From: a virus
Virus record (IMG/VR): IMGVR_UViG_3300050343_000110
Direction: 5' to 3' (one strand)
Length of the DNA: 64,000 nt
The translations under genes and the position numbers were made by a program. The notes below the pieces were generated by a model, which worked only from the letters and a program-made list of their open reading frames with translations, had not been told where the DNA came from and ran no database searches. The first letter of the stretch is position 1; each line of letters opens with the position of its first letter. Shown piece after piece: positions 24,593 to 63,954 of the stretch.

Positions 24593-24620
24593 CGATTCGG
24601 CCACGATTCGGCACGATTCG
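24593..24620 (+). repeat. Three CGATTCG motifs at 10-11 bp spacing
   Basis: At 24593, 24604, 24614. Confidence 0.85.
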
Positions 24621-24667
24621 GCAAACTATGTAACTAAATTCTATAAATCCCAAAAAATATGTCTTAG

Positions 24668-24695
24668 AAGCCCTTGATTTACAAGGGCTTTTTTT
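24668..24695 (+). terminator. Terminator hairpin containing an IHF-like site
   Basis: AAGCCCTTG-ATTTA-CAAGGGCTT plus T-run. Confidence 0.75.
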
Positions 24696-24710
24696 ATGCC
24701 AAAAAAGGCC

Positions 24711-24739
24711 TTGACTTGTTATGAAAACATTGGTATAGT
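24711..24739 (+). promoter_or_regulatory. Early sigma70 promoter with TGTTATGAAAACA spacer element
   Basis: TTGACT-17-TATAGT. Confidence 0.8.
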
Positions 24740-24770
24740 ATATGTATAGTCAAGAGAAAGAGAGAAACAA

Positions 24771-25851
24771 ATGACAGAGACAATTTTTATCGGTGCGAAC
24801 AACGGTGGCCTTGAGATTTACAAAGGTGCTGGAAACTTGATTGCTGGAAACGTCCAGACTGCAAAGACTTTCAAATATGTGATGGATACTCATGGTATTG
24901 ATGTTGACGATGACACCTTCTGGTACACAAGCAGCATGGACTTTGCAGATGAAGAAGGGTTCGCCCACTATGACGATGCAAAGATACTTGCAGAAGAAGG
25001 TTTTAAATTAATGGAAATGACAAAGGCGTATTAAAATGAATATTGAGAAAGTTACAAATATGATGTGTGAGTTCGTTACCTATGTTGACGATTTCTATAA
25101 TGAGAAGTCTGGTATCTATCCTATCAAGGGTATGACAGACATGATGGTTATCAAGGCTGTCCAGAAACACGTTGCAAATGTTGGAATGGATTTCTGTGCC
25201 GACAGTGTTGATAGAGAATGGGTAAGGGATATCATCCTTGCTGATAACGATTTGAAATGGGGAGTGTAATTATGGGTTATTTTTACCAAGATTGGAAAGA
25301 GAAAAAGATGTTTGTTGAGAATACAGACGGGTCAGTTCGTGATGAACTTTGGTGAGGCAGAGAAGTCAATGATTCAGAATCTTGAAGATGCTGTCATCAA
25401 TCTCACAGAGGGTGCTTCTGATGAGAAGAGAATGGCGATTGGATACATGGAGTATCTTGCCGACTGCCTGAAAAAAGGTAAACTTGAAGTTAAGTGGAAC
25501 ATTAGTTAGGAGAATATTATGGGATTGTTAGTAAACGTATATAAGACTGAAGGTCGTGATTGTACAAATGGTGGTGTTTCCTCTAAGTGGAACATCAAAG
25601 GACTTTGTTTGATAAATGTGCCTGGGCCCTTTAACCCAAGTGAGGATTATCCTGCCGCACAGTTGGTAAAACAGAGTTTTTATTTTGGTGATAGTGTGAA
25701 GATTATCCCAGAAGAGTGTGAAGGTAAACAGACAATGATGGGTGGTAACTATGCCGCAACATCTGATAGTCGGTTCAGTGACGCCATTGCGGCACGACTT
25801 GGACACAACTTCTACGGTGCTGTTCCTATTCACGATAGGGTTGAATTTTAA
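24771..25851 (+). other. Four small early genes (24771..25034, 25036..25269, ~25272..25509 frameshifted, 25519..25851)
   Basis: Tandem ORFs with RBSs behind an early promoter. Confidence 0.65.
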
Positions 25852-25863
25852 TTCAAAAAGCTA

Positions 25864-25892
25864 TTGACTTGTTATGAAAACAATGGTATTAT
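25864..25892 (+). promoter_or_regulatory. Early sigma70 promoter with the same spacer element
   Basis: TTGACT-TGTTATGAAAACAATGG-TATTAT. Confidence 0.8.
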
Positions 25893-26091
25893 GTAATAGA
25901 AAGATGAGGAGAGATTTGGATGTGACAATATTCTAAGGACAAAAACAGTGCAAGTAGGTTCGCCCATATGAATTGAAAGCTATGTCCACACAGGGTGATA
26001 TGGGGCGCACTAGCTAAAAGACCTGACTAGTGTGACTGACAGTGATGCGACCACATTAAAAGCCAGGCATTCTTTTTTGAGGAGATTTGTT

Positions 26092-26678
26092 ATGAATGAC
26101 GTTTTAAATGATATTGAGGTTCTTGAGAATCTTGTGATTGCAATGAATGAAGGTGCATCTGATGAGAAGTTCATGGCACTTCATGCAGTAGAAAAACTTC
26201 TTATTGAGAAGAAGGATTTGGTTCAGAAGTTTGAAGAGGAGTTTGCAGATGATACGCAACAAGCAGCCTAAGGATGAAATCGTAATTGATTTGACTGGCC
26301 CAGATGGGAATGCATTTTCTTTGATGGCCAATGCACAGAATCTTGCCAAACAGTTGGGGTTCAATGGTAAGGAAATCGTTGATGAAATGACTACTGGCGA
26401 CTATGAAAACCTTATTTCAGTGTTCGATAAATATTTCGGAGACTACGTTATATTGGAGCGTTAAATGACAGGACTTGAATTTTCATTGGTGGCAACACCT
26501 ATACTTGCTGGTTTTTTCTACTTTGGAAAACATCAGGGCAAGAAAGAAAAGATTGAACATATCATCGACCCATACTTTGAATCAGTTAGAAAAGAACAAT
26601 ATGATTAAAGTATCGGTTGATAAAAAAACTGGCGAAAAAGAGATTTTGCCACTTGACAAATACCAAAAAGTTTGGTAA
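26092..26678 (+). other. Three small early genes (26092..26271, ~26249..26464, ~26465..26678)
   Basis: ORFs; the second has the IDLTGPDGNAF motif common in large phages. Confidence 0.6.
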
Positions 26679-26703
26679 TATATAAAGTAATGTGAGTGAT
26701 TCG
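26653..26703 (+). promoter_or_regulatory. sigma70 promoter followed by TGATTCG
   Basis: TTGACA-17-TAATAT; motif at 26697. Confidence 0.65.
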
Positions 26704-26862
26704 GAGAAAGGTTAAAGATGTGATTTATGAAACTCTAGATGAAGCGGTTGAGGCCGCTCTAGTAATGTGTGATGCCCTAGAAACTGTTGTAAAGATTACA
26801 GAGTGCAAGGGTGGATATGAATTGTTTGGAACTGGAAAGTTTGTAAAGGAAATAACAGGATA

Positions 26863-27267
26863 ATGAAAAAGACTTTAATGACACTAGCACTTATTGGTGC
26901 ATCTAGTACTGCATATGCAGAGACAGTACAGGATTATAACAAACAGGTTATTAATCGTGTACCTTACAATGTAGAGGTTTGTACTAACCAATCAGTGGGT
27001 GGCGATAAATCTGGTGATATGCTAAGAGGTGCTATCATTGGTGGTATTATCGGTAACAACGTAACTAAGAATGTAGAGAACGGCGGTGCTGTTGGTGCAT
27101 TACTTGGTGGTATGTTTGGACATAGTAATTCCACGGCCACTGGTGGTACACAACGAGTGTGTAATGTACAAACTCGTTATAATGAGGAATCTGTAACAGT
27201 CTACTCTCATAGTGTAGTAACATTCTACCATGAAGGTAAACAGTATAAACTAAGATTTCAAAAGTAA
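26863..27267 (+). CDS. Glycine-zipper 2TM exported protein
   Basis: Signal peptide; GAIIGGIIG...GAVGALLGG. Confidence 0.75.
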   Translation: MKKTLMTLALIGASSTAYAETVQDYNKQVINRVPYNVEVCTNQSVGGDKSGDMLRGAIIGGIIGNNVTKNVENGGAVGALLGGMFGHSNSTATGGTQRVCNVQTRYNEESVTVYSHSVVTFYHEGKQYKLRFQK

Positions 27268-27281
27268 CTAGTTGAGCGAAT

Positions 27282-27359
27282 CTGTCCGTAGCTCAGCTGG
27301 ATCAGAGCAACAGCCTTCTAAGCTGTGGGTCGCAGGTTCGAGTCCTGCCGGACAGGCCA
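27282..27359 (+). tRNA. tRNA-Arg (UCU)
   Basis: Acceptor CTGTCCG/CGGACAG, anticodon arm ACAGC-CTTCTAA-GCTGT, GGTTCGAGT, encoded CCA. Confidence 0.95.
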
Positions 27360-27375
27360 ACTAACTGAGGAAAGT

Positions 27376-27627
27376 ATGTATAATAAAAGGAACAAAAGAA
27401 AACAAGAAAAACCACTTGGTGGCATGACAGTTATAGTTCGTAACGATGATGTCAATGGTGCATTGCGAGTCTTGAAAAAGAAACTTCTAAAGGAAGGTCT
27501 TTTCCAAGAAATGCGAGAGCGTTCATTCTATGAGAGTAGAGGAACAAAGAAAAGAAAAGCAAAAGCTGCTGCAACTAGACGATACAAACGTAAGATGCAG
27601 AAGCGTATGGAAGAACTTGGTTATTAA
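27376..27627 (+). CDS. rpsU: Ribosomal protein bS21
   Basis: V.VRNDDVNGALRVLKKK...G.F.E.R.R.FYE. Confidence 0.85.
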   Translation: MYNKRNKRKQEKPLGGMTVIVRNDDVNGALRVLKKKLLKEGLFQEMRERSFYESRGTKKRKAKAAATRRYKRKMQKRMEELGY

Positions 27628-27637
27628 GAGGTGAATC

Positions 27638-28147
27638 ATGGCACGGCGTGCTAAAGTGGAGACTGACTCAACACTACCTAAAACTCGTAAAAGACGTAAA
27701 CCGATGACTGTCGAACAGAAGGCAGCCGCCGCAGAACGTCTTGCGATTGCACGAGAGAAACGTGCCAAAGCAAACCCACCAAAATATACAAACATCCATC
27801 ATACTGTGGTTGCTCTTGATGAAGAACACATCATGTCTATGAAGAATGTTCAACGATGGATTAAGACACAGAAAGAACTGTTGTCAATTGCAAAGAGTGA
27901 TGTTAGACGTAAGGTAAAGGGTGCAGAGGCTCGTGTTGCTTCTCACGAAGGATACATTCGTAATCTTCATAGGTATCTTAGGGATGGTGATTACTGTGAT
28001 AGTTTCTACGGCGAACATCAACAACACAAATGCAAATTAGTTTGTAGAGTTATGGCGTACAATCCTGATGGTACACCAAAGAGAAGTGTGGGTGTCTGGT
28101 ATCCAGACATTGGCTGCACTTGGACAAGGGAAATGGAAAATGAGTGA
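27638..28147 (+). CDS. Basic hypothetical protein
   Basis: AAAERLA.AREKR motif. Confidence 0.65.
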   Translation: MARRAKVETDSTLPKTRKRRKPMTVEQKAAAAERLAIAREKRAKANPPKYTNIHHTVVALDEEHIMSMKNVQRWIKTQKELLSIAKSDVRRKVKGAEARVASHEGYIRNLHRYLRDGDYCDSFYGEHQQHKCKLVCRVMAYNPDGTPKRSVGVWYPDIGCTWTREMENE

Positions 28148-28532
28148 GAACGACAATGGAAAGATTATTCAGTTTCCAACGAAACTAAAATCTCATGGAG
28201 ATGTAAAGATAAGTGATAAGGCAATCAGATTGCATACTGATTTGAAATTTGCAGAACATCTTTGTGAAGGCCTCGTTGTAAACATGATTGCAAATATGAA
28301 CGAGAATGGAATGGATACAGAAAATCCAGAATTCATTAAAGATATAGGTTTTATGATCGAGGTTGTAAAGGCGACTATCTATAGAGACATGGGTGTAAAA
28401 CATCCTATGCAAGAACTTGTTGACATTTTTGTACTTTCGGAGTATGATGAGACTCAAGGAATTTACACTGAGTTTGATTTGGATTTGGTGAAAGAAGTTA
28501 TTAATGAAATAGCAGGAGATGAAAAAGATTAG
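28140..28532 (+). CDS. Hypothetical protein
   Basis: KIIQFP motif; upstream of rnh. Confidence 0.6.
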   Translation: MSENDNGKIIQFPTKLKSHGDVKISDKAIRLHTDLKFAEHLCEGLVVNMIANMNENGMDTENPEFIKDIGFMIEVVKATIYRDMGVKHPMQELVDIFVLSEYDETQGIYTEFDLDLVKEVINEIAGDEKD

Positions 28533-28534
28533 TT

Positions 28535-29397: not shown

Positions 29398-29398
29398 T

Positions 29399-29852
29399 AT
29401 GAGTAGAACGCATACACCTCTACTTTCTGAGGTACTAAAGAAAGTGCATAACGCAAAAACTAAGGATAAGAAGATTTCTATCCTAAGAGAGAACGACAGT
29501 GACCCTCTTAGAATGGTTATTAAATCTTCTTTCGACCCCTAACATCGAATGGGTATTCCCAGAAGGTGAAGTTCCTTACAAAAAGAACGATGTTCCAGAG
29601 GGAACAGAACATACTGTTCTGAGAAAAGAATGCAGAAAACTGTTTAGATTCATCAAAGGGGGTGACAATACCATACCACAGTTTCGCAAAGAAAATCTTT
29701 TCATTCAAATGTTGGAAGGGTTACACGAATCTGAGGCTCAACTTATTATTGATGCCAAGGATAAAAAACTGCATCAGGTTTACAAAGGACTATCTGATAA
29801 TGTAGTTAAAGAAGCATTTGGTTGGAATGACCAATATATCAAGGAAACCTAA
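29399..29852 (+). CDS. Conserved T4-like hypothetical protein (frameshifted)
   Basis: PEG.VPY, FIQMLEGLH..EA motifs. Confidence 0.65.
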
Positions 29853-29853
29853 T

Positions 29854-30389: not shown

Positions 30390-30394
30390 ATAAC

Positions 30395-30480: not shown

Positions 30481-30490
30481 GATTTTTCTC

Positions 30491-30822: not shown

Positions 30823-30877
30823 TTGACTTGTTATGAAAACAATGGTATGATCTATATAGAAAGTGAGAAGTGATTCG
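30823..30877 (+). promoter_or_regulatory. Early promoter with operator and TGATTCG
   Basis: TTGACT-TGTTATGAAAACAATGG-TATGAT; motif at 30871. Confidence 0.8.
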
Positions 30878-37137: not shown

Positions 37138-37495
37138 TGGGAGTGCTTTGGCTGCGCCAGAGGACTATAATACACCAGAACCAGAAACACCACCTCAAGT
37201 GTTTCGTTCAGACAAACCAGTAACTTGTACTACTGATTCATATGATGAAGTAAAGCAAAACTTTCTAGAATCACATGGTGAAGTTGGTTTTATGAGATAC
37301 ATAAGTGATAGTAAAACTGCTATTGAAATAATTGGTAATGTAGACACAGGAACTATTACTATCTTAGAATTTATACCATCAAATAAATATACTTGTTTTA
37401 TTTCTGTTGGTAGAGGATTAGAGGTAAACAGTAATATTTTTGATAAGGCAAAACAAGGTATTGAAACTAACTTACTTAAATCTATTGACTTGTAA
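37091..37495 (+). CDS. Exported hypothetical protein
   Basis: Signal peptide; KPV.C ... TC....G. Confidence 0.6.
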   Translation: MKSWKKALTLSALLFSGSALAAPEDYNTPEPETPPQVFRSDKPVTCTTDSYDEVKQNFLESHGEVGFMRYISDSKTAIEIIGNVDTGTITILEFIPSNKYTCFISVGRGLEVNSNIFDKAKQGIETNLLKSIDL

Positions 37496-37515
37496 ACACC
37501 ACTATGGTATAAATA
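37485..37515 (+). promoter_or_regulatory. Overlapping sigma70 and T4 late promoters for tmRNA
   Basis: TTGACT-17-TATAAA with TATAAATA at 37508. Confidence 0.7.
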
Positions 37516-37519
37516 TAGT

Positions 37520-37877
37520 ACAGTTTGTTGATACAATCTGAAAGCTAGACAGGACTTGGGGGCAGTACCCAACGCCTCCACCATAATTACTTGAGGACAA
37601 TATGTTTGATAGACTAACAGAGTTTTTTATAAAACTGTTTAAGATACAAGAAAAGACACCAGTAAGATATCTATCTGGTGTTGGTAAATCAAGTAATTAT
37701 GATGGGGGCGAACTAGGATCGACTGATGGTAATAGGAAAGAGTAGAGCTGTGGGATGGATGCCTAATAATCCAAAAAAACTAAACGCAAACGATAACTTT
37801 GCACCTCAAGATTTTGCTCTAGCAGCATAATCGGATAGGGTTTCGGTAGGTTTCCTAGTAACAGAATAACCTACCAC
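37520..37877 (+). ncRNA. ssrA: Circularly permuted two-piece tmRNA (alphaproteobacterial type)
   Basis: Acceptor piece with T-arm TTGGG-GGCAGTA-CCCAA and CGCCTCCACCA (ends 37583); coding piece GGGGGCG..GGATCGAC from 37704 with G3-U70; tag ANDNFAPQDFALAA* at 37786..37830. Confidence 0.93.
37602..37745 (+). CDS. 47-aa ORF starting inside the tmRNA intervening segment
   Basis: GAGGA RBS; MFDRLTEFFIKLFKIQEKTPVRYLSGVGKSSNYDGGELGSTDGNRKE. Confidence 0.45.
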   Translation: MFDRLTEFFIKLFKIQEKTPVRYLSGVGKSSNYDGGELGSTDGNRKE

Positions 37878-42029: not shown

Positions 42030-42074
42030 TCATATTATGTTACTGTTCAAATTATTGACAAAGACTAAATGTCT

Positions 42075-42082
42075 TATAAATA
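42075..42082 (+). promoter_or_regulatory. T4-type late promoter
   Basis: TATAAATA. Confidence 0.75.
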
Positions 42083-42111
42083 TTGTCGTAAGTATATTAG
42101 GGAGTGATACT

Positions 42112-42657
42112 TTGAAAAAATTCATAATGGCGCTGGGTATTTTACTATTATCTACTACTGGCGCCTTTGCACAAACCGTTGTCGAAACAACAACTGATAG
42201 TAAATCAGATGTTACGACATCTGGAAAAACTATAGTCATATCACCGCCACCTTCTGCAATCTCGCCGAGTGTAGGTTCATCGACTTCTGATCTTTGTATG
42301 TCAGGAGTATCAGGTGCAGTACAAACACAAATTCTTGGTGTGTCAACTGGTGAGATGGTAAGAGATGAGAATTGTGAACGTCTAAAGATTTCAAAGACGC
42401 TATATGATATGGGTATGAAAGTAGCAGCCGTATCAGTGCTTTGTCAAGACGAAGAGTATATGATGCCATGGAGATGGCAGGAACACCTTGTCCATTCCTT
42501 GGTAAAATTGGGGAACAAGCAACAGATGAGTGGAAGAACAATCCTGGCCGTATTCCACCATCAGAAGTAGTGAGGACACAAGGAAGATGTTCAAGAACGT
42601 AATGCAAAAATTGGCGCTGGCATTGGCGGCCTTGCTTTGCTTTTGCTCCTACTCTAA
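42112..42657 (+). CDS. Exported Cys-containing protein with C-terminal membrane anchor (frameshifted)
   Basis: Signal peptide; PPPSAISP..DLC..GVSGAVQTQ..NCERLK..LCQD..AGTPCP; tail GAGIGGLALLLLLL. Confidence 0.65.
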
Positions 42658-44358
42658 CGCACAGGTATCTACAGGGCCCGCCTCTGGACAAACTGGTAAC
42701 ATTCTAATAATAGGGAATGGGTGGACAGGCAACTTTAGTACTTGTACTCATAATGTAAACTGTTGGGCAGGAAGTACTGATACTGGTGATATTCACAATG
42801 CTCCAGCCGGAACTACTGGTAATGGTTCTACTTTCTACTGGAGCGGCACACAAGAAACCCTTACAAATACAATCGCAATAAACTCTGCACTTGCTGCCGC
42901 TGGTATACAAGTTGATGGTTTTGATTATGAGTGGGTATATAAGAATGGTAATGCAAACCATTTTTCTGGACAGCCAGGCGGTGGTGGAATAGACCCCCTT
43001 TGAGATTGTTGTCAATGTCTATGATGCCAACGGTAACTTGTTTAAGACTTACAGGTATGACTACGGCACTAATTTTGCAAACTGGACATATGATACAGGT
43101 ACAGAAGTATTCGGTACAAATTTCCTTGACCCCTCATTCTTTGGAAATGTAGAAGTACTTGTTACTGGACAGGACATCGCTGCACAGGCTGGTTATTGGG
43201 GGCCAGAGTTTAGAGCAGATGAATCTGGATTATATGTAAACTATTCTGCAAACCTTTGTTACAACAATCCTCTACATGACCCTTCATGTCCTGGCTATGC
43301 GAATGCTTTGTTTCAACAACAATGTACTGCAAATCCATTATTTGATTCCGCCTGTCCAGGCTATGCCGCCGCATATCTTATACAACAATGCACTGCAAAT
43401 CCCTTGCATGACCCTGCCTGTCCTGGCTATGCAACTGCATATTACAATCAACAGTGTTCACTAGACCCTCTATATGATAAAGGTTGTACTGGACATTTGA
43501 CTGCACAGTGTAATAAAAACCCTCTTTATGACCCTCAATGTCCTGGCTATGCGGCTGCTTATCTTGCAGACAGGTGTTTCTATGACCCTCTATATGATGT
43601 ACAGTGTACAGGATACCAACAGGCATACTTTGATCAGCAGTGTGAGTTGGATAGTCAATACGACCAACTCTGCCCTGCATATCTCGACCCCTGACCTTGT
43701 AGATTTAGGTGATGTTGACCCAGTTGAAGAAGTTCTATCTGAACCAGATATTCCAGTAGTTGCAGAACTAGACTTTACAAGTACAGTTAATGATTTTGAT
43801 GGTGAGATAGTTGTAGAAGATCAACAGATAGTAGAAACTGTAGAAGTTGAAGATGGAGATGGTTTTCAACAAGTCGATGATAATATCGAAGGTGAAAAAT
43901 TGCAGATGGAAGATGATATCGAAAAAGAGATTGCCGCACTAGAGAATGAGGCCGTTGAAGATGATACTGCACCTGATTTTGTAAAGGGTGATGCTAATCA
44001 AGAGGACGATATTGAGAAGGAACTTGCAGAATTAAAGAATAGTGAAAATTCAGATAACAAGAAAGATGCACCAAAACCAAAGACAAAGAACGAAAAGATA
44101 AAACTACTACTTGCTATGAAAGCAATAGAACTAACAAAAAAACTTGAGAAAGAAGTAAGTCTGGAACAGAATATGATAATGCAAAGACAACTACTTGCGT
44201 TGATTTCATATGTGCCAGGCTTTGATTATAATGAGAAGAAATTACCACAGACTAATTTCTATCCACCAAAACCAACAGTTGACCATGCCTATGCAAGGTG
44301 GTTCTTAAATGACCCTAATTTTGGTTTGATGGAAGATTCACAATATAATTTTAAATAG
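42587..44358 (+). CDS. Large exported protein with Cys-pair repeats and acidic stalk (indels near 43000 and 43690)
   Basis: Joins ORFs 42530..43003, 43038..43694, 43528..44358. Confidence 0.65.
43257..43683 (+). repeat. Seven coding repeats CxxNPLxDxxCPGY (~22 aa)
   Basis: Visible in translation. Confidence 0.85.
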
Positions 44359-44367
44359 GAGAGAGAA

Positions 44368-44913
44368 ATGGCAGAAATAGAATACGGTGGAATTAAAGTA
44401 GGGGGTTCTAAACTTCTACTTGTTTTGCCACTAGTGGGAACAATTGGTGGTGGACTATGGGCTGGATTTGAGTTCTACAAAGACTACATGGATATGAAAG
44501 AACAAATCCAAAACTATGTTGCACCAGACTTGTCAGAGTTTGACAAACAACTTGCAGTTATCACAGAAGAGATGACACTTACCAGAGAAGAGGTAAAAAT
44601 CATCAGAGATTCTATCGGTGAACAAGTAGACTTTATGCGTGATACCAAACACGACTTGCGTGGTGACTTGGTTCGTATGGAGAAGATACTGGACAAGGTT
44701 GAGAACGACATTGATGCAGTAGAAGATGAGGCACAGGCACTTATGGACAGAACCAAGACTGATGCTCGTAATATGATTAATGATGCAAACAATCGTTTCA
44801 ATGATAAGGTATCTGGTTTGGAAGGTTATGTCAAACGAGAACTGACTTCACTTGAAGATGACCTTGATAGAAAATTGCAGAAGAGTTTGGATAACCCACT
44901 AGCGAATAGATAA
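44368..44913 (+). CDS. Membrane-anchored coiled-coil protein
   Basis: N-terminal TM LGGGLW.GFE.Y-type, long heptads, LDNPLA tail. Confidence 0.65.
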   Translation: MAEIEYGGIKVGGSKLLLVLPLVGTIGGGLWAGFEFYKDYMDMKEQIQNYVAPDLSEFDKQLAVITEEMTLTREEVKIIRDSIGEQVDFMRDTKHDLRGDLVRMEKILDKVENDIDAVEDEAQALMDRTKTDARNMINDANNRFNDKVSGLEGYVKRELTSLEDDLDRKLQKSLDNPLANR

Positions 44914-44982
44914 ATACTAGTGTGAGTTGAGAAGTCAAAAACATTATTCTTCATCATTTGTAACTAACTAAGGAAAATACAA

Positions 44983-45465
44983 ATGATAGACCCAGTTACC
45001 GCTCTTGCTACAGCCTCGAGCGCATTTAATCTTATCAAAAAAGGTTTTTCTGTCGGCAGAGATGTTGAATCTATGGGAAAAGACCTTGGACGCTGGATGG
45101 GAGCAATGTCTGACCTGAAGAAGGCAGATGAATATGCTAAGAAACCGCCTTTGTTTAAAAAGATATTTGCAGCGGGTTCAGTAGAAGAAGAGGCCATGGC
45201 TGCCTTCATGGCGAAGAAGAAGGCAGAAGATATGCGTGACGAATTGCGACAAATGATTTCGATGACAAGAGGGCCGTCTGCATGGCAGGAGCTCATCAAT
45301 ATGGAAGCACAAATTCGTAAAGACAGACAGAGGGCAATCTATGATCAGAAAGAACGACAGAGAAAGTTCTTTGAATACAGTATTGCGGCACTATTAGTAA
45401 TTATAACTTCTTGTTTTGTTGTATGGTTCGCTTGGTTCATTATGCAACATAAAGGTATGATTTAA
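44983..45465 (+). CDS. Conserved phage membrane protein
   Basis: MIDP.TA.A.A..AF start, C-terminal TM. Confidence 0.6.
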   Translation: MIDPVTALATASSAFNLIKKGFSVGRDVESMGKDLGRWMGAMSDLKKADEYAKKPPLFKKIFAAGSVEEEAMAAFMAKKKAEDMRDELRQMISMTRGPSAWQELINMEAQIRKDRQRAIYDQKERQRKFFEYSIAALLVIITSCFVVWFAWFIMQHKGMI

Positions 45466-45879
45466 TGTTGTTGGTGTTTGTCTCTATATTTGTAATGATA
45501 TTGATTGGCCTGTTGGGGTATCTGGTATGGATGGATGACCAGATATATAATCCACCATATATGCCTGAGACAGAAGCAGAAAGACACGTTAAAGAAATGA
45601 AATTAAGAATTCATAATGCAGAGTGGAAGTTTAAGAGAGAAATCGGTGAGGTATGATTCACGCATTCATGTTAATAGTTGTTATGGGAACAAATGAATTT
45701 AGAAAAGTAGAACCAAACTCTATGTACTTTAGAAGTATAACAACTTGTCTATGGTATGCAGAAAAAATTCCTAAGAGATATGGAAACTATGCTTGGGATT
45801 CATATGTTGACCCTAGAGATAGGGTTACTGCATATTGTAAACCTGTCAAGATAAAAGATGGTGAACACATCTACGATCA

Positions 45880-48036
45880 CTAACCAGCAACTGCAGCTAA
45901 TTGTGATGCAGAACTGTTATCTCTTGTCGCAACAGGTATAGGTGCAGATGCTCCTCCACTACTTCCACCACCAACATTATTCTGGTTGACAACAACTGTT
46001 GTAGCTGCATCGGCAGTAGCATCTTGCGCTCCAGCAGTTCCTTGTGCAACTGCCTGTCCAGTAGAACTGCCAACTGGTGCAAGATTAGGATTGCCATACA
46101 TTTGTTTGTATTTGGCATCAGCAAACTTCAATTGTTTGCGTGGTTTTAAATTACTATATCCGGCATATATATCTTCATATTCTTCAGTTCCACGATATGC
46201 ATATTGTCCTTGTCTATCTCCGTCTGATACCAGATATTCTTTCTGTCCAGAACCAGAGAATTCACCAGCACCATTTCTTTTGCTAATCTCTGCTCTAAGG
46301 ACTCCTGCTGTATCTTCATCAATATCTTTATCATCTAAGATTGCTTGTAACTGTTTAGTAGTAGCCTTACCAATGAGATTAGCATTTACTTCAGAGTTGC
46401 CAATTAAGTCTTTGTCGTAAAGTCCTGTTGCCTTTGCTTGGTCTAAACCACTCATTCCTTTGAATTCATCAGAACTTTGATCTACCTCTTTACCAAACAG
46501 GAAGTCAACTACTGTCTCTGGTAGTATTCCACTTGCAAGTCCTCGTACATCAATATTTAATAAACTTTTGAAGAACTCACCAATCTTACCAAATGTTTCG
46601 ATAACAAAATCAGAAAGACGGAATGGTTCGTTTGGATCACCAAATCCAAATATATCTTTGATTGCATTGACTGCCAAATTGATTGGTGCATATATTAAAT
46701 CTGCAATACTACCAAATAAGTTAAGGAAGGCCTCGGCGCTAAAGTCACCAGAGAAAATTGCTTTAACAGAAGAAATTACATCACCCACAGTTTGTTTAAT
46801 AAATTGGAACATTGCAAAATCACCAAATAAATCTTCTCCTAGTGCAAATATTTCTTTGATTTTGGTAATTACAGTGTCAACCATTCCAGTGATAAATGTT
46901 CTAAGACTGAAATCAGTTCCATCCTCAGTTGACCAACCAAAGATACCCATAATCCAATTTACTGCTGAATCAATGGGTGCAAAGATAATATCAAGAAGTC
47001 CACCTTCACCCACAATTCCATTCCACATAGATGTAAGTGTTCCTACAGGGTCAGTGAATAATCCAACAACACCATCGTATATTCCAACAAAGAAATCTTT
47101 AATACTGGCCAATGTATCAGTAACAAACTTACCTATAGAACCAAAGACTGAATCTGTTTCTTCTAAACCAAACAGTTTTGCAAACAAATTATAAACACCA
47201 GTGATTAGATTATCTATTGTATCAATAAAGAATGTTCCTAGACTTCCAATTAGAGTTGTAATACCACCAAGGATATCACCCTCTTGAAACTTTGTGATTG
47301 CGTCACCAACACCAGAAAACAGTTCTTTGATATTTTCAAACTGTCTGATAAACACATCTTTAACAATCTCAAATATAGGTTTCAGAACATTTTCATACAA
47401 ACTTTGAATTGCTGGTACTATGTCATCCATGATGACTTTCTTAGTCTTTTCCCAATACTCACTATTCATAAATGCAATAAAGGCTGCAAGAGCGCCACCG
47501 ATAAGAAGTTTACCTAATATACTTTTCAGTCCACCACCAAATGCAGATGCCTTATCTTTTATCGCTTTACCAAAAGAAGATGCAACACCCACAACTCCCC
47601 TTTCTACAGACTGAATACCATCTAATAGTGCAGTTTGTAATCTGAAATTTTTACGTTTATCTTCAACTGCTGCGGCTGCATTTTTTACACCAGCTTTTGC
47701 ACCATCTGCCAATAGTTTTAAGGGAGCAAGAATTGTTAGAGCAGGATTATTTTTAAGAATTGTTTCTTTTTGTTCTTGAAGTAATCTTTTAGTTTCCTCA
47801 CGACCTTGATAGTTTGCCGCAGACGCCTCTGTTCCTTGTGAAATCAGTTCTCGTGTGAGCTCTCTTCCATCTGCAAATGCCTTTTTAGTGACTTCAGTAT
47901 TTTTTGCCATTGAGAGAGCATCTTCTGCCGCCCTCTTTTTGGATGCGGCAACAAGGGCAGAAAACCCTTCTGTCATGGTTTTAGTCAAACCTTTAAATTC
48001 TTTTTCGGTGTTACCCTTGTTGTCATCTTTTGCCAT
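45880..48036 (-). CDS. Tape measure / baseplate hub (gp29-like) protein
   Basis: 718 aa, helical with hydrophobic periodic repeats, downstream of gp26/gp51. Confidence 0.6.
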   Translation of the reverse strand: MAKDDNKGNTEKEFKGLTKTMTEGFSALVAASKKRAAEDALSMAKNTEVTKKAFADGRELTRELISQGTEASAANYQGREETKRLLQEQKETILKNNPALTILAPLKLLADGAKAGVKNAAAAVEDKRKNFRLQTALLDGIQSVERGVVGVASSFGKAIKDKASAFGGGLKSILGKLLIGGALAAFIAFMNSEYWEKTKKVIMDDIVPAIQSLYENVLKPIFEIVKDVFIRQFENIKELFSGVGDAITKFQEGDILGGITTLIGSLGTFFIDTIDNLITGVYNLFAKLFGLEETDSVFGSIGKFVTDTLASIKDFFVGIYDGVVGLFTDPVGTLTSMWNGIVGEGGLLDIIFAPIDSAVNWIMGIFGWSTEDGTDFSLRTFITGMVDTVITKIKEIFALGEDLFGDFAMFQFIKQTVGDVISSVKAIFSGDFSAEAFLNLFGSIADLIYAPINLAVNAIKDIFGFGDPNEPFRLSDFVIETFGKIGEFFKSLLNIDVRGLASGILPETVVDFLFGKEVDQSSDEFKGMSGLDQAKATGLYDKDLIGNSEVNANLIGKATTKQLQAILDDKDIDEDTAGVLRAEISKRNGAGEFSGSGQKEYLVSDGDRQGQYAYRGTEEYEDIYAGYSNLKPRKQLKFADAKYKQMYGNPNLAPVGSSTGQAVAQGTAGAQDATADAATTVVVNQNNVGGGSSGGASAPIPVATRDNSSASQLAAVAG

Positions 48037-54158: not shown

Positions 54159-54824
54159 ATGAGAACATTTACGGAACTGCAAGAGGGAGTTTATGACCCC
54201 AATATATTCAAAGCAATTTTCCTAGCAGGTGGGCCTGGCAGCGGTAAATCATACGTTGTCAGGCGTACCACTGGTGGACTTGGTATGAAGATTGTCAACA
54301 GTGATGACATATATGAAAAGATGTTGAAGGACGCTGGTATGGATACTACACCAGAAGATATCTACTCTGACAAAGGACAAGAGATTCGTGTTAAGGCCAA
54401 GGGTGTTACAAAGCGTATGCAAGGTAATTTCTTGGACGGTAGACTTGGACTAATCATTGACGGTACAGGTAAAGACTACGACAAGATTTCAAAACAAGTT
54501 TCTGGATTAAAATCTCTTGGATATGAGTGTTACATGATATTTGTAAATACCTCATTAGATACTGCACAGGCACAAAACAAAAAACGTAAACGCACTCTAC
54601 CAGAAACAGAAGTTTCTACTATGTGGAATGAAGTCCAACAGAATATTGGTAAGTTTCAAAGACTATTTGGTGGGTCAAGTTTTATTGTTGTAGACAATAA
54701 CATGGCTGGTGAGGATGTATTTGAAAAGGTATGGAAGCGAATCGCCATGCTGATTCGCAAAAAAGTGTCGAATCCTATCGCAAAAAGGTGGATTTCACAG
54801 GAATTGGCCAAGAAAAAACGATAA
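54159..54824 (+). CDS. P-loop kinase (zeta-toxin/AAA_33-like)
   Basis: FLAGGPGSGKS, VNSD, IIDGTG; leader MRTFTELQE. Confidence 0.8.
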   Translation: MRTFTELQEGVYDPNIFKAIFLAGGPGSGKSYVVRRTTGGLGMKIVNSDDIYEKMLKDAGMDTTPEDIYSDKGQEIRVKAKGVTKRMQGNFLDGRLGLIIDGTGKDYDKISKQVSGLKSLGYECYMIFVNTSLDTAQAQNKKRKRTLPETEVSTMWNEVQQNIGKFQRLFGGSSFIVVDNNMAGEDVFEKVWKRIAMLIRKKVSNPIAKRWISQELAKKKR

Positions 54825-56083: not shown

Positions 56084-56593
56084 ATGAATATGACATTATA
56101 TTTGGATATGGATGGAGTGATTGCAGACTTCTTTGGTGGACTTGAAACAAAGTACAATACCAAACATTGGAAACAGATACCAAAACTAGAGAAAAGTATT
56201 ATTGCCCTACAAGGCACTGACTTCTTCAATACTCTAGAGTTGTATCCCTCATCAATGGAGTTGGTGAAGTTCGTACAGAATCTTGTTGGTGATGATTGGG
56301 GTATCTGTTCATCGCCTCTGAGGGGTGATAGAGACAACTCTGCATATTGGAAAAGGGTATGGTTGGAAAGACACTTCATCTTACCCACCATTAATAACCT
56401 CATATTTACTGGCCAGAAAGAAAGGTATGCAGTAAATAGGTTTGATGGTAAACCCAATATTCTGGTGGATGACAAACCAGACAACATTGCTAGATGGAAT
56501 GCAAAGGGTGGTATCGGTATTCGATATCAGGCGAATGAAAGTAGTCTTGTTGAACTCAAAACTAAATTGATAAAAGCCGTAGAAAGCTCTTGA
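56084..56593 (+). CDS. HAD-family 5'(3')-nucleotidase, second copy
   Basis: YLDMDGVIADF, SSP, K..W, ILVDD. Confidence 0.85.
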   Translation: MNMTLYLDMDGVIADFFGGLETKYNTKHWKQIPKLEKSIIALQGTDFFNTLELYPSSMELVKFVQNLVGDDWGICSSPLRGDRDNSAYWKRVWLERHFILPTINNLIFTGQKERYAVNRFDGKPNILVDDKPDNIARWNAKGGIGIRYQANESSLVELKTKLIKAVESS

Positions 56594-56645
56594 CATTTGT
56601 TATGAAAACAGGTATGATCATAGGGTAAGTGAGAGAGGTGATTCG
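56590..56645 (+). promoter_or_regulatory. Early promoter with operator and TGATTCG
   Basis: TTGACA-17-TATGAT; TGTTATGAAAACA at 56598; motif at 56639. Confidence 0.8.
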
Positions 56646-59455: not shown

Positions 59456-59894
59456 ATAATGTTGACAAAACGGTAATTAATTGGTATTATATGCTATGAG
59501 TTATGATATAGACGAAATCACAAGAGAAGATGTTGCACTGATTATCGGTGTGATGTTGTTCTCATTTTTTATGGGGCTGATTATTGGTAAAGATTCATTA
59601 GGGATTACTCTCTTGATTGGCATGACAGCATATATTTTAATTTATGTGGGTAGGATATTGAGGATACTATGATGAGATATGATGACTACATGAGAACTAG
59701 AAGTAAAAGTGAGATGCTCAAAGATGAGGTTGATAAAACTATGTCTTTGATATGGAAACTGGTAGATGAACCAGACTATGAATCACATTACGCTGCACAT
59801 AGTGAAACAGGTGTAGTGTATGACAAGAGAATATTGGGTGATAAGATTGCAAGAATCAACCATGAGATTGAAGAACTTGAAGATAGAATAGAGA

Positions 59895-60536
59895 ATGACA
59901 AACAATAATATTATTAGTGATGAACGATATGGTAAACTATGGAATCAAACTCGTGACTTCATAGACGAACACTGCATAATCAGAGCAGAGCCAGGAACTT
60001 ACATGGATGGTAAGTTAGAAGGTTCTAGATATACATGGGTGTTCTATTTACGAAACGGATTGTATCGTACAGACTTTCTGAGTGCAATCACACAGATGTG
60101 GATGAAAAAAGTACATGATGAGATAGGACATTTTGACTTTCAGTTGAGTGGACTAGAAACCGCCGCAACACCAATGATTGTAGGTATGCCTATCTATGCA
60201 CAAGTATTCGGTGTAAATCTCAACGGTTTTTCTATTCGTAAAGAACAAAAGACATATGCGATGAAGAACTGGATTGAGGGCGGTACGACAGAACAGCCAG
60301 TGATGTTATTGGATGACTTATCCAACTCTGGTAATTCATTGAGAAAAGCATACGACATTCTAGAATGGCATCATATGAACACATTTGAGTGTGCGTTTAC
60401 AATCGTCAACAAAGTCAATGAAGGTGTACATGATGACAACATGACCACAGACTTCTTGTTACCAGAACATATCAAAATCATGTCTCTGTTCACACTAGAC
60501 GATTTTAATTTAGTAGGTAATGTGGAGTTGCACTAA
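59895..60536 (+). CDS. Type I phosphoribosyltransferase (OPRT-like)
   Basis: GLETAATP, IRKEQK.Y...NWIEG, MLLDDLSNSGNS. Confidence 0.75.
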   Translation: MTNNNIISDERYGKLWNQTRDFIDEHCIIRAEPGTYMDGKLEGSRYTWVFYLRNGLYRTDFLSAITQMWMKKVHDEIGHFDFQLSGLETAATPMIVGMPIYAQVFGVNLNGFSIRKEQKTYAMKNWIEGGTTEQPVMLLDDLSNSGNSLRKAYDILEWHHMNTFECAFTIVNKVNEGVHDDNMTTDFLLPEHIKIMSLFTLDDFNLVGNVELH

Positions 60537-60904
60537 TGGTGACGAATGAACGCAAGATTATTCTGATTACGGATATTATCGATCAGAAGGTTCGTAAGGA
60601 AAAAGAGATAGACTTCTATGAGAGGGAACTCAAGAAGATAGAGGAGAAATTATTCTTTCTAAGGAAAGAACGACAACTGACTCAATTTATTATTGACATC
60701 ATCGAAACAGAGAAGGTTGTTGATATCAGGGAGCAGATGTATGAGCGCTTGGAAATTTCAACAGGAATCAATACTGAAGGTGATAACTAAAGACGGGCCC
60801 ATCTGGAGAGAGATGATGAAACCCCCAGTTAAGTTTGTAAAACATAAGGATTATGGGGTAAGGAAACTTGCAGAAAGATTAGGAAAGAAAAGTAGGAGAG
60901 TGCG

Positions 60905-61069
60905 ATGAAGTGTTATGTGTGTGATGAGGAACTTATTTGGGGTGGTGATCACGATATAGAGGAAGATGAATTTTTCCATGAGGATAATCATACCATACAC
61001 ACAAACCTATCATGCAACAAGTGTGGAGCTTATGTAGAGGTGTATCATGGAAACAAACAAACAGATTAA
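60905..61069 (+). CDS. Small Zn-finger protein
   Basis: MKCYVC..ELIWGGDHD...NLSCNKCGA. Confidence 0.65.
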   Translation: MKCYVCDEELIWGGDHDIEEDEFFHEDNHTIHTNLSCNKCGAYVEVYHGNKQTD

Positions 61070-61698
61070 GTACGGTGTATATGTAGAAATAGACACAAAC
61101 GAATGGATGTGGGATTCTGGTACACATCAGATTTCCCCAGCCCAACCACCACTATTGTTTGACACAGAAGAAGAAGCACAAACGTATAGTAACAAGAAAT
61201 GGAAAACAGGACGGGCGTTAGAATACCCAGAACATCTTAAACAATATTGGAGAGAGTACGAACAGGAACGTGCAAAGAAGATTGCACAGAACGTACCACC
61301 AGAACTATGATATCAAAAATGTTGGTATGTCTGTTAGTATCATACAACATAGAAATATCAGAGACAGGAGTAAAGGATAGGGTATGTGTATACAAGTGTC
61401 AAAAAGGACTGAAAGAAACCGTATTCACACATCCTGTATATCAATGCCCCAGAAGGATGTATATAGATGACCCTGATAAGAAGGATTAATTTTGCACCAG
61501 TGGTACAACAGATGATACCACACCCAGCAGAAACAAAAGAAATAATAGTGAAAAAGGATACAGTAAGGAAAGTAAAAGCTATTGACAAAACCAGTACTTA
61601 TGTGTATAATAAGAATAATCGCAAGTCTCAGTGAGGTTTGTGATTTCAACCAAGGGTATCAGTAGATATCCTGTAACTCAACTAGTAAGGAAAGAAAA

Positions 61699-62752
61699 AT
61701 GAGTAACAAATTACATATTGACTTAGAACGGAGTTTGCAAGAAGCTCCACCAGAAATATATTACAATCAGTTAGGAGATGACGGAAATCCCCTATTCCCT
61801 GGCACCCATTTTGAGAAGCGTATTATTACTAAGCGTGATAACGTATCTTATAAGAGGTTCTGAGCAAATCAGAGAAGAGGACGCCGGAGAAGACCGAGTT
61901 ATGAAGCTGTTACCGAGCTTTCGCAATAGAGGTATCATCTATAGTAAGATGCCGCCTGCGATTAAAGTCGACCCAGAAGATAAGAAGCGTTTTAGTGGTT
62001 GCTCTGGATTTGGAAGAAATGAAACATTTGAAGTCCTAAATTATGAGACATACTTTTATGATGTATTACGCTTCGATAACAAACTCGCAGAAGAAGTCTT
62101 TAAGATTAACTCTAATGAGACAGATGAGTTTGTGCCTGCTACACCTAATACAAAGAATACCTATATTAAGAGTGTAGTCAACGCCGTGCATGATAATGTC
62201 ATTAAGAACAACGATAATGCTATTAAGAAATATCTGAAACTGGTTTGTCGTAACCGTCCAGATTGGCATACATCAATCCTAAACACTGTTCGTAAGGAAC
62301 ACATCTCACGTTTTGAAACAATGCAAGCATGGAATACATCATCTGCAAAGAAGTTTGCAGAGGAACATGACTTACCCTATGAAGGGGATTGTAATAACAA
62401 CGTAGATAGCCTTGGATATGTACGAAAGATTACATCAATCAAGAACGTATTTTGGGATGCAATGAATGTATCATTAAAGTACAGTATGAAGAAGGTAAAG
62501 GTTTGGAGTTGGATTGATAGTCCGAAACCATCTACACTTGATGACCAAAGAAAAGATGTAAGAAAGAAGTTTACAGACTTAGAAGCGAAGTTCCAACTGT
62601 GGATTGCTGATTACCTTGATATGGATATCCAAGAAGTAAGAGAGAGGGGAGAAGGTAGATTCCCTATTGAATTCTCTGGTTTCTTACCACAGCGTACTGA
62701 AAAGACTGCTGAAAACAACGGTAATCCTAAAGAAGAAGGTATTATCCAGTAA
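61699..62752 (+). CDS. Hypothetical protein, ParB/Srx-like N-terminal region (5' indels)
   Basis: SF..RG.....PP....SGFGR; own promoter TTGACA-17-TATAAT near 61582. Confidence 0.45.
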
Positions 62753-62764
62753 TAAACACTATAG

Positions 62765-62796
62765 AATCATGGGTAGCGGAAGTGTTACCCATGATT
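62765..62796. terminator. Hairpin, probably bidirectional terminator
   Basis: AATCATGGGTA / TACCCATGATT. Confidence 0.6.
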
Positions 62797-62893
62797 TCCC
62801 ACCAGAACCCATATTTCCCCATATATTTAAAAAAGGCTTGGAATAATATGATTCTCTTGTCATTAAAGGTTGTTATTGACCGACTGACCAGAA

Positions 62894-62922
62894 ATTATAC
62901 CACACTTTTTCATATTTGTCAA
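62894..62922 (-). promoter_or_regulatory. Consensus sigma70 promoter on the minus strand
   Basis: TTGACA-17-TATAAT with extended -10 TG. Confidence 0.75.
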
Positions 62923-63001
62923 TAGCCGAATCGGGCCGAATCACTAATTATTTTCATCTTTTTTGTCAAGAGTTTTCTGAAATTTCTCTGAGAACCCTCT
63001 G

Positions 63002-63073
63002 TAAGCCATTGATTTTACTAGCGAATTTAATGCCAAATTAGGCCTTGACTTGCTCTGAGAACAATGGTATAAT
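63002..63073 (+). promoter_or_regulatory. IHF-like site plus early promoter with operator variant
   Basis: TAAGCCATTGATT; TTGACT-TGCTCTGAGAACAATGG-TATAAT. Confidence 0.78.
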
Positions 63074-63105
63074 AGCTATATAATCAGAGAGTAAGGAGAG
63101 TTCAC

Positions 63106-63519
63106 ATGGCATACATTTCAACCCCAGAGGTAGCAGCGATTCGGAAACAACTGAAGGAGCAGCTTCCACAGTATAAGTTCTCTGTCAAGAAGGATCATCA
63201 TTCTTCTGTTACGGTAGCATTTATGAAAGGCCCTGCATGGAAAGAGTTCCAGACTCGTGATAGGTACACTGGTGAGTACAGTGAAGCTACTATGGATGGC
63301 CATGAACAGTTGAATCATCGCTGGGCGAATGACTTCTATGGTGAGGAGAATGGTGCTATCATTCAGAAGGTAGAGAAGATTATCAAGACTGCTCCCTTTA
63401 TGGAAGGTGTCGGAGATATGTGGTTTGACGAAAGTGATTCGCAAAGTGACTACTTTCACACTGCATATTACATGAGTATTCACATTGGTAAATGGGATAA
63501 GGATTATCAGGTAGTCTGA
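63106..63519 (+). CDS. Early protein, LPD29-like domain
   Basis: A.IRK.LK...P..KFSV, D..SDYF motifs. Confidence 0.6.
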   Translation: MAYISTPEVAAIRKQLKEQLPQYKFSVKKDHHSSVTVAFMKGPAWKEFQTRDRYTGEYSEATMDGHEQLNHRWANDFYGEENGAIIQKVEKIIKTAPFMEGVGDMWFDESDSQSDYFHTAYYMSIHIGKWDKDYQVV

Positions 63520-63907
63520 AGCCCTTGCTGGTCAACGGTTACAGGGCAGCCAAATTAATTTAAATTATTTTAGCGAAAGCCCTTGACAAGCTGTTGACAG
63601 CCTGGTAACATAGCTATGTTGATAATGAGAAAGGATAAGAGTTTATGAGTTATTCAAATTTAATTGCTGAGTTGTCTACGAGTGTTGATCAAGGTATCTT
63701 TACTTCTAAGAGATATCTAACATCAACCATGAAGAGATGCACTACGGCCCAGAGAACAAGAAGGACTGTCCATGTGATACCTGTCCTATGATGCAACAGT
63801 GTCTAGAGAATGTCACTGAGTGTTCTGCCATGAGGAATTGGTGTTCTAAGGGAGACTTCGCTGATAAGGACTCTGATGAGGTTAGTTAGGGGTGCTGCAT
63901 AAAGGTG

Positions 63908-63954
63908 TTGACAAACCGCTGTGATTATGGTAGTATAATAGGGTAAGTGATTCG
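63908..63954 (+). promoter_or_regulatory. sigma70 promoter followed by TGATTCG
   Basis: TTGACA-17-TAGTAT; motif at 63948. Confidence 0.65.

Follow-up and report, generated by a model that had tools for sequence, protein, structure and literature searches.

A conserved YGATTCG heptamer at early promoters of a Melnitz-like marine phage and its possible reading by host GcrA

To our knowledge, control by GcrA and CcrM is known for bacterial chromosomes only, and phage promoters with GcrA boxes did not come up in a literature search. The question of such boxes was raised by a 64,000-nucleotide stretch of viral DNA (the window), whose source is a Melnitz-like myophage (Kyanoviridae) that is T4-like, marine and uncultured. 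The heptamer YGATTCG recurs in its non-coding DNA, and the first-pass annotation proposed that the phage couples early transcription to the epigenetic cell-cycle circuit of its host. Does the heptamer have a function of its own, and which factor would read it? The best GcrA site is TGATTCG, or more broadly YGAKTCK/G, and GcrA boxes sit at -20, -30 or +5 to +30 (PMC4647560, PMC9976885).

All nine non-coding copies reported in the annotation were found at their coordinates: on the plus strand at 24593, 24604, 24614, 26697, 30871, 56639 and 63948, and on the minus strand at 62927 and 62937. Each of them is T/C-GATTCG and fits the extended GcrA consensus YGAKTCG/K around GANTC. Enrichment, which the annotation had left to be tested, was evident when sequence shuffles were used for the expected counts. 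The window contained 24 copies of YGATTCG versus 7.57±2.62 in shuffles (largest shuffle, 15), and the pattern TTG-N20-TANNNT followed 8-30 nt on by YGATTCG occurred 4 times versus 0.11±0.31 expected, a count that none of 100 shuffles reached. Fifteen copies lie in coding DNA, about twice the expectation. Since RGATTCG shows an equal excess (15 versus 7.5 expected, all but one in coding DNA), the coding copies of YGATTCG are probably due to codon bias, and the signal therefore resides in the non-coding copies. These nine occupy six independent places, while about 0.9 copies were predicted from a non-coding share of at most 12% of the window in a crude ORF map. Elsewhere in the same count, YGATTCH was depleted (46 versus 62 expected), YGAGTCK was not enriched (13 versus 20 expected), and GANTC as a whole was depleted (185 versus 228±15).

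Four copies stand singly at early promoters of the host (sigma70) type. Start sites were inferred at 7 nt past the -10 box, and box positions were counted from them.

26653..26703, plus strand: early promoter P26653, TTGACA-17-TAATAT, with TGATTCG at 26697-26703, centre about +13
30823..30877, plus strand: early promoter P30823, TTGACT-17-TATGAT, with TGATTCG at 30871-30877, centre about +17
56590..56645, plus strand: early promoter P56590, TTGACA-17-TATGAT, with TGATTCG at 56639-56645, centre about +18
63908..63954, plus strand: early promoter P63908, TTGACA-17-TAGTAT, with TGATTCG at 63948-63954, centre about +9

P26653 drives small ORFs, a tRNA-Arg and the S21 gene. The box of P30823 ends 1 nt ahead of the ATG of a SprT-like gene, and that of P56590 ends 2 nt ahead of the ATG of a 66-aa ORF. 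The single copies had been described as starting 12-21 bp after the -10 boxes; their downstream placement held, and the corrected distances between the -10 box and the heptamer are 15 (26697), 19 (30871), 20 (56639) and 11 nt (63948). Under the positional rule used here (box centre at -20±1, -30±2 or +5 to +30 from a sigma70 promoter start), all four boxes, centred at about +9 to +18, fall within the published GcrA zone of +5 to +30. Their promoters have a consensus -35 and a good, mostly TG-extended -10. In the window and its relatives, 15 of 15 promoter-linked boxes were sense-oriented and T-centred; GAGTC cores and reversed boxes were absent. This orientation and T-centre rule is stricter than the published YGAKTCK.

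The promoters themselves are much alike. P24711, P25864, P30823, P56590 and P63045 have nearly the same spacer, early promoters have leader fragments such as gtgagTGATTCGgagaaag in common, and repeated modules of a hairpin and an early promoter with near-identical spacers flank variable small genes. Three different leader contexts carry the heptamer. A plain extension of the Shine-Dalgarno sequence was ruled out because the box-to-ATG distance varies from 1 to >50 nt. An association with late promoters (TATAAAT) was likewise dismissed, given the inconsistent spacing (6, 21 and 36 nt); a late-type TATAAATG lies 36 nt past the P63908 box.

In related IMG/VR phages, the flanking bases drift but the heptamer is retained at orthologous promoters and arrays. 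The P26653 box is retained in the orthologous promoters of L030, L037, L050 and L082 and is absent in Melnitz, and an orthologous box persists even where its flanks drift and a 5-nt insertion shifts its position. At P25864 orthologues, the box has been gained or lost. An orthologous match to P56590 and its box was found in L111, where the P63908 box is also retained with altered flanks. Extended conservation (AGTGATTCGGC) is confined to copies within the window phage; since the flanks differ in relatives, the heptamer appears to be the functional unit. Melnitz has 14 heptamer sites in 141.5 kb; every one lies in coding-type sequence, and the promoter pattern is absent. The relatives show a bimodal distribution of counts, with no heptamer at Melnitz-type IMG/VR loci, 9 in 39 kb (G001) and 0 in 126 kb (G413). 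No leader boxes were found in the SAR11 phage Mosig. The heptamer element is real, specific, oriented and conserved.

The remaining non-coding copies form tandem arrays, listed here with a neighbouring promoter and one further site.

24593..24620, plus strand: tandem triplet CGATTCG-N4-CGATTCG-N3-CGATTCG, periods 11 and 10
62927..62943, minus strand: tandem doublet, TGATTCG-N3-CGATTCG as read on the minus strand, period 10
62894..62922, minus strand: sigma70-type promoter TTGACA-17-TATAAT, 12/12 matches, TG extension
54738..54757, no strand assigned: inverted pair CGAATCG-N6-TGATTCG within the 3' end of a coding gene, status uncertain

The doublet had been taken for an inverted pair and is actually a direct tandem repeat on the minus strand with a period of 10. 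It adjoins the -35 of the minus-strand promoter, with centres at about -53 and -43, and also lies at about -150/-140 from the plus-strand promoter P63045. Downstream of the triplet, which begins 5 nt past the stop of a small ORF, lie a TATAAAT resembling a late promoter (24642), a terminator hairpin and the early promoter P24711; from the inferred start of P24711, the box centres of the triplet lie at about -150, -139 and -129. The view of both arrays as promoter elements was not supported: these centres are beyond the known GcrA positions, and the positional rule fails for triplet and doublet with respect to P24711, the minus-strand promoter and P63045. The inverted pair lies about 150 bp upstream of the early promoter P54895. 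From the minus-strand promoter, a transcript of about 125 nt ending at a hairpin (62767-62796) is possible; its predicted fold is unremarkable (z -1.6), and an Rfam search of the 62.9-kb intergenic region gave no match.

At the triplet locus, relatives have two or three tandem heptamers with free spacers, with inverted pairs instead in L030, L046 and L060-L064 and one heptamer copy within a terminator loop in L079. Across the arrays of six lineages, the spacers vary in length and sequence and the heptamers do not. L097 has an identical doublet, and L111, which is more diverged, has retained it. A scan of IMG/VR for GATTCGGC-N2-3-GATTCGGC returned 40 contigs, of which three were examined: L108 matches the triplet locus, and both L097 and L111 correspond to the 62.9-kb locus.

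The best explanation, to which we give about an even chance, is that selection maintains YGATTCG as a cis-element, which a GcrA-type reader recognises in double-stranded DNA, and that some early genes may be tied to a host epigenetic factor. The most likely reader would be host GcrA riding on RNA polymerase-sigma70. PmipZ has two downstream boxes, GcrA is also found on strong non-promoter sites (PMC4647560, PMC9976885), and it acts as a monomer, usually at one box (PMC9976885). At the four early promoters, a box 9-18 bp past the inferred start occupies the PmipZ-type 'downstream box' position, where the mobile DNA-binding domain of GcrA helps the polymerase to load before the open complex forms. 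These promoters would then fire depending on the GcrA level and on methylation of the GANTC adenines. The tandem arrays, close to two early promoters of the cassette type, would bind GcrA strongly as stand-alone sites. We infer an alphaproteobacterial host, methylation of the sites, binding by GcrA and activation rather than repression, and we speculate that the sites sense methylation state. Against this reading, a host methylase limited to part of the cell cycle might leave newly made phage DNA unmethylated.

Of the coupling to GcrA that the annotation proposed, the exact consensus word, the four boxes in the zone and the alphaproteobacterial ties of the phage stood, while the arrays lie off the known positions (-43/-53 and -129 to -150). 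The specificity for the Y...G flanks and the T centre, with GANTC depleted overall, argues for the GcrA reading, as does Melnitz, which grows on the non-alphaproteobacterium OM43 and has no promoter-linked sites. Against it stand the OM43 host of this nearest cultured relative, the lack of leader boxes in the SAR11 phage Mosig, the array centres off the known positions, a box orientation and centre stricter than in the published motif, and the failure to find a methylase or GcrA homologue among window-specific ORFs and in related fragments. The box promoters are near consensus and so do not look activator-dependent.

The ties to Alphaproteobacteria are several. The phage carries an alphaproteobacterial-type tmRNA (alpha_tmRNA), the 80 nearest cellular relatives of its S21 are nearly all from Alphaproteobacteria, and the phage group includes a cultured relative growing on SAR11. 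GcrA was present in 261 of 401 alphaproteobacterial genomes sampled. For the candidate host SAR11, it was confirmed in a Pelagibacteraceae genome of 1.21 Mb; genomes of SAR116, the other candidate, encode it as well. CcrM and methylated GANTC have been described in SAR11, and GANTC methylation has been reported for marine Caudovirales. The annotation had called for a search for gcrA and ccrM homologues elsewhere in the genome. Neither an N6-adenine methylase nor a homologue of GcrA turned up among window-specific ORFs or in related fragments, PF07750 (GcrA) was absent from five related IMG/VR fragments, and a degenerate search of the window for the GcrA signature RNAVIGK gave matches at chance level only. 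PF01555 (N6/N4 methylase) was seen only in the distant relative G413, interrupted by internal stops.

The arrays could also be methylation-state sensors or GcrA sinks rather than promoter boxes, which we consider very doubtful. As sinks, they would soak up host GcrA-RNA polymerase and concentrate it on the phage early region, at the cost of host S-phase promoters. As part of a replication origin, the arrays and the conserved minus-strand promoter at 62.9 kb would form a methylation-gated primer promoter, with the GATC heptamers of P1 oriR as the analogue.

A different reader of the same DNA is unlikely, though quite conceivable: the heptamer would be an operator for another sequence-specific DNA-binding protein, encoded by phage or host. 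Positions +9 to +18 are classic for repressors. Bound there, such a protein would keep the polymerase from clearing the promoter and silence some of the early promoters, and it would nucleate with high affinity on the arrays, where the heptamers follow one another at one helical turn. Promoters already near consensus, sites downstream of the start, strict site orientation, an array period of 9-11 bp that sets the sites on one helix face, and arrays beyond the reach of GcrA all suit this reading, and the lack of leader boxes in Melnitz and Mosig fits a factor carried by some phages only. The gene for the cognate protein would be expected in the phage, typically close by. However, no DNA-binding protein was recognised among window-specific ORFs: Pfam and PHROGs gave 0 matches to DNA-binding families for 30 window-specific ORFs plus w30870 and w63106 (both with Melnitz homologues), in a window that covers less than half of the genome. 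If the heptamer were an operator, its exact match to the GcrA optimum would be due to chance, in a phage group tied to Alphaproteobacteria, and the tolerated 5-nt box shift is unusual in a phased operator.

It is highly improbable that the element acts at the RNA level, with UGAUUCG in 5' leaders and 3' UTR arrays as the target through which an RNA-binding protein or a small RNA governs translation or stability. The leader boxes and the tandem arrays at the 24.6-kb locus are all sense-oriented, the two boxes that end 1-2 nt before an ATG overlap an extended Shine-Dalgarno-like AGGTGAT, and the L079 copy sits in a terminator loop. However, the 62.9-kb doublet is antisense to its flanking genes and upstream of a minus-strand promoter, and is therefore probably not transcribed in the heptamer sense; the inverted pairs at the array locus of relatives, the variable box-to-ATG distance and the failure to find a complementary RNA also argue against it. 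Least probable of all is a word without function, carried along in duplicated PeSL-like promoter-leader cassettes and at a recombination-prone intergenic spot, as the shared spacers and leader fragments and the RGATTCG excess matching that in coding DNA might suggest, since only the heptamers are invariant in the arrays, the box persists through flank drift, three leader contexts bear it, and the counts in relatives are bimodal.

If the GcrA reading is true, a lytic marine phage reads the epigenetic cell-cycle state of its host or borrows its RNA-polymerase cofactor, and runs part of its early programme in this way. The reading would also explain the grading of early promoters in T4-like marine phages without MotA/AsiA. 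The box, present in many Melnitz-like contigs and not in Melnitz, could mark the host. A recent shift of Melnitz from SAR11 to OM43 has been proposed in print; the box distribution would fit such a move, which is testable by box counts.

The phage promoters resemble the GcrA/CcrM sigma70 promoters of Caulobacter crescentus (Haakonsen 2015, PMC4647560; Wu 2023, PMC9976885) in the heptamer TGATTCG/YGAKTCG and the sigma70-type promoter, and those of the PmipZ type in centres at +5 to +30, tolerated box shifts and occasional box pairs. Unlike them, they are near consensus and lie on a lytic genome, their boxes are T-centred and sense only, none in the window falls in the -35/-10 spacer, tandem arrays lie far from any start site, and methylation and GcrA dependence are putative. 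Phage P1 oriR has five GATC-containing 7-mers under Dam/SeqA control. The phage arrays share with it tandem 7-bp units with an adenine-methylation site in each, and differ in the methylase motif; their origin function is hypothetical, and neither DnaA boxes nor iterons were seen alongside. Arbiol et al. in 2010 reportedly described promoter-early stem-loop (PeSL) cassettes of T4-type phages, which are likewise repeated hairpin-plus-early-promoter modules beside small variable early genes. Such a cassette explains the spread of the promoters but not the invariance of the heptamer amid drifting surroundings; it describes the carriers of the heptamer, not the heptamer. Mascolo et al. in 2022 are said to have found CtrA-binding sites in promoters of alphaproteobacterial phages. 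The regulator and the motif (TTAA-N7-TTAA) are different and no methylation is involved, but in both cases the phage would borrow an alphaproteobacterial cell-cycle regulator through sites in its own promoters.

The heptamer YGATTCG occurs 24 times in the window, compared with 7.57 ± 2.62 times (maximum, 15) in dinucleotide-preserving shuffles. The first-pass annotation had listed nine intergenic copies and left their enrichment to a count of coding versus intergenic sites. All nine were present and non-coding. Since non-coding DNA makes up at most 12% of the window on a crude ORF map, about 0.9 non-coding copies are expected, and the nine observed occupy six independent places. The other 15 copies are coding, as the annotation had recognized, at about twice expectation; because RGATTCG is similarly overrepresented in the window (15 versus 7.5 expected, all but one coding), we take codon or dipeptide usage to be the cause of the coding excess. 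The YGATTCG signal is in non-coding DNA. The enrichment is specific to this word: YGATTCH (46 versus 62 expected) and GANTC overall (185 versus 228 ± 15 expected) are depleted in the window, and YGAGTCK is not enriched (13 versus 20 expected). The non-coding copies and the adjoining minus-strand promoter are as follows, with early promoters named P plus window position and start sites inferred to lie 7 nt past the -10 box.

24593, 24604 and 24614, plus strand: triplet, five bases past a stop codon, with TATAAAT, a terminator hairpin and P24711 downstream
26697, plus strand: single box at P26653, sense, centre at about +13; the promoter leads to tRNA-Arg and a phage S21 gene
30871, plus strand: single box at P30823, sense, centre at about +17, ahead of a SprT-like gene
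56639, plus strand: single box at P56590, sense, centre at about +18
62922-62894, minus strand: TG-extended promoter, TTGACA-17-TATAAT, 12/12 consensus
62927 and 62937, minus strand: doublet abutting the -35 box of this promoter, box centres at about -53 and -43
63948, plus strand: single box at P63908, sense, centre at about +9

The early promoters of the window are strong and sigma70-type, with TTGACA or TTGACT, a 17-nt spacer and a mostly TG-extended -10 box. They are cassette-like, several having a near-identical spacer downstream of a hairpin, and are similar in this to the PeSL modules of T4-type phages. The cassette promoters at 24711, 25864, 30823, 56590 and 63045 share the near-identical spacer (TTGACTtgttatgaaaacaatggTAT...), some after a hairpin and 'ggcc'. 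In the most direct test, TTG-N20-TANNNT followed 8 to 30 nt downstream by YGATTCG was found four times in the window and 0.11 ± 0.31 times in shuffles. The distances from -10 box to heptamer, earlier put at 12 to 21 bp, are 15, 19, 20 and 11 nt. No GANTC was found near the start of the other approximately 15 strong intergenic early promoters of the window.

Because the triplet precedes TATAAAT, the terminator hairpin and P24711, its boxes lie at about -150, -139 and -129 from the P24711 start. The copies at 62927 and 62937 had been described as an inverted pair; both are on the minus strand and so form a tandem doublet, which also lies about -150/-140 from the plus-strand P63045. An inverted pair, GCGAATCG-N6-TGATTCGC, does occur at 54738-54757, within a coding gene; the early promoter P54895 follows about 150 bp downstream, the same distance class as for both arrays. 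The minus-strand promoter (region 62760-62922) is oriented against the flanking genes and is kept in two related loci, L097 and the diverged L111. A transcript from it is predicted to run for about 125 nt, to a hairpin at 62767-62796. This RNA matches no Rfam family and contains no convincing ORF; it may be an sRNA, an RNA antisense to the 3' end of a 324-aa gene, or the product of an origin-type primer promoter.

We compared 80 related IMG/VR loci, fetched via the conserved gene that follows the triplet. Their combined 385 kb contains 162 heptamers (about 27 per 64 kb), with bimodal counts per locus: zero where the upstream gene is of the type in Melnitz, the nearest cultured relative, and several in many others. 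At the triplet spot, six lineages (the window and L108 included) have two to three tandem heptamers with 2- to 4-nt spacers of free sequence, and other lineages have the inverted pair CGAATCA-N8-CGATTCG; the invariant columns of the array alignment coincide exactly with the heptamers. TGATTCG is retained in the P26653 orthologues of L030, L037, L050 and L082, whose promoter spacers and downstream leaders vary, and in L082 the box is shifted by a 5-nt insertion and still intact. At P25864 the window reads AGATTTG, and the orthologous promoters of L037 and L061 have a box in its place. In L111, which has a diverged version of the 55-65 kb region, the doublet, the minus-strand promoter and the P63908 box are all retained amid changed neighbouring sequence. 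All 15 promoter-plus-box cases in the window and loci are in sense orientation, and none is reversed or has a GAGTC core. With heptamers invariant amid drifting flanks and an orientation this strict, we conclude that the element is real and maintained by selection. Simple hitch-hiking with duplicated cassettes fails to account for the conserved heptamers.

The window (38% GC, genes nearly all on one strand) shows synteny to the stretch at about 8.4-74 kb in Methylophilales phage Melnitz, a T4-like member of the Kyanoviridae that infects OM43 strain H5P1, with DNA about 78% identical where alignable and many proteins 60 to 92% identical. Two gene blocks, 42037-45883 (in place of the Melnitz curli operon) and 59481-62752, have no Melnitz counterpart, and most of their genes, including that of the 324-aa protein adjoining the doublet, have no Pfam or PHROG match. 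Melnitz has 14 YGATTCG copies in 141.5 kb, about the composition expectation, all in coding-type sequence, and no box at its orthologues of P26653 and the triplet spot. The cultured SAR11 myophage Mosig has 21 copies versus about 9.3 expected and no leader box; one copy closely follows a stop codon, with an early promoter about 100 bp further downstream. A Mosig tandem doublet, TGATTCG-N1-CGATTCG (L126, 40608-40622), lies about 180 bp upstream of another early promoter, which leads to a tRNA cluster; the doublet falls within a small ORF that is annotated on the other strand. The distant relative G413 (IMGVR_UViG_3300017909_001085, 125,860 bp; locus L074) has no YGATTCG in its whole approximately 126 kb and 21 TGATTC versus 52 for the reversed control word, and so seems to avoid GATTC-type GANTC sites. 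It also has a frame resembling an N6_N4 methylase, interrupted by two internal stops. These differences recall the published division of pelagiphages into clades with and without GANTC depletion.

The window encodes tRNA-Arg(TCT) and a permuted, two-piece tmRNA of alpha type (37481-37875; Rfam alpha_tmRNA, 103.5 bits), likewise present in Melnitz and Mosig. The 80 nearest cellular relatives of the phage S21 (27424-27627) are nearly all Alphaproteobacteria (Stellaceae, SAR116/Puniceispirillaceae and Rhizobiaceae; 42 to 54% identity), with no Methylophilaceae. These ties would make GcrA, the alphaproteobacterial sigma70 cofactor reading GANTC methylation, plausible in the host. GcrA is present in 261 of 401 sampled alphaproteobacterial genomes, a tally that takes in the unpublished genomes G050 and G250, on which none of our conclusions depends. 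One 1.21-Mb, 32% GC genome encodes full-length GcrA, which exact look-up gave as GcrA family cell cycle regulator [Pelagibacteraceae bacterium], with HIMB114 in the same cluster; two SAR116 genomes have GcrA, and SAR11 has a homologue of the GANTC methylase CcrM. GANTC methylation has been reported in SAR11, with a cell-cycle-like gradient, and in marine Caudovirales MAGs. The Melnitz authors proposed a recent SAR11-to-OM43 host shift, which the box present in relatives and absent in Melnitz would fit.

MEME analysis of GcrA-bound sites yielded "TGATTCG or, more broadly, YGAKTCK", with regulon boxes clustering at about -20 and +2 to +30 and strong sites away from promoters also occupied (Haakonsen 2015, PMC4647560). 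A later study gave YGAKTCG at -20 ± 1, -30 ± 2 and +5 to +30, with two downstream boxes at PmipZ, and described GcrA as a monomer tethered by a flexible linker to sigma70 domain 2, its promoter search possibly aided by two nearby boxes (Wu 2023, PMC9976885). In sequence, the phage heptamer is thus the optimum GcrA site. The GcrA-type promoter placement first suggested holds for the four single boxes, all within the downstream zone; the triplet and doublet lie outside it.

We consider a GcrA-type reader the likeliest explanation, at about even odds, and go no higher because the arrays lie beyond the reach attributed to the GcrA linker, the box-bearing promoters are already near consensus, the motif is narrow, Mosig lacks leader boxes, and the gcrA or ccrM homologues suggested as a check did not appear: none (GcrA or N6-adenine methylase) was found in the 30 window-specific ORFs plus w30870 and w63106, two ORFs with Melnitz homologues, in a window that is a minor part of the genome, or in related fragments. 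Near-consensus promoters would suit another DNA-binding protein, for example a repressor, and repressors also act at +9 to +18, where the single boxes lie; however, a flexible tether would accommodate the tolerated 5-nt shift more readily than a phased operator, and we regard this alternative as possible but rather unlikely. Some small probability goes to other readings, such as an origin-linked methylation cluster. An RNA-level element is improbable, and a heptamer without function, given its conservation, slightly more so.

A literature search on GcrA, GANTC and bacteriophage returned no account of GcrA boxes at phage promoters. By sequence and position, the element qualifies as a PmipZ-type GcrA box and would work like one. 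We do not claim membership in the GcrA/CcrM regulon class: the likeness is one of sequence and placement, and the arrays lie outside the published positions. The Caulobacter consensus is broader, whereas the phage boxes are strictly oriented and exclusively T-centred.
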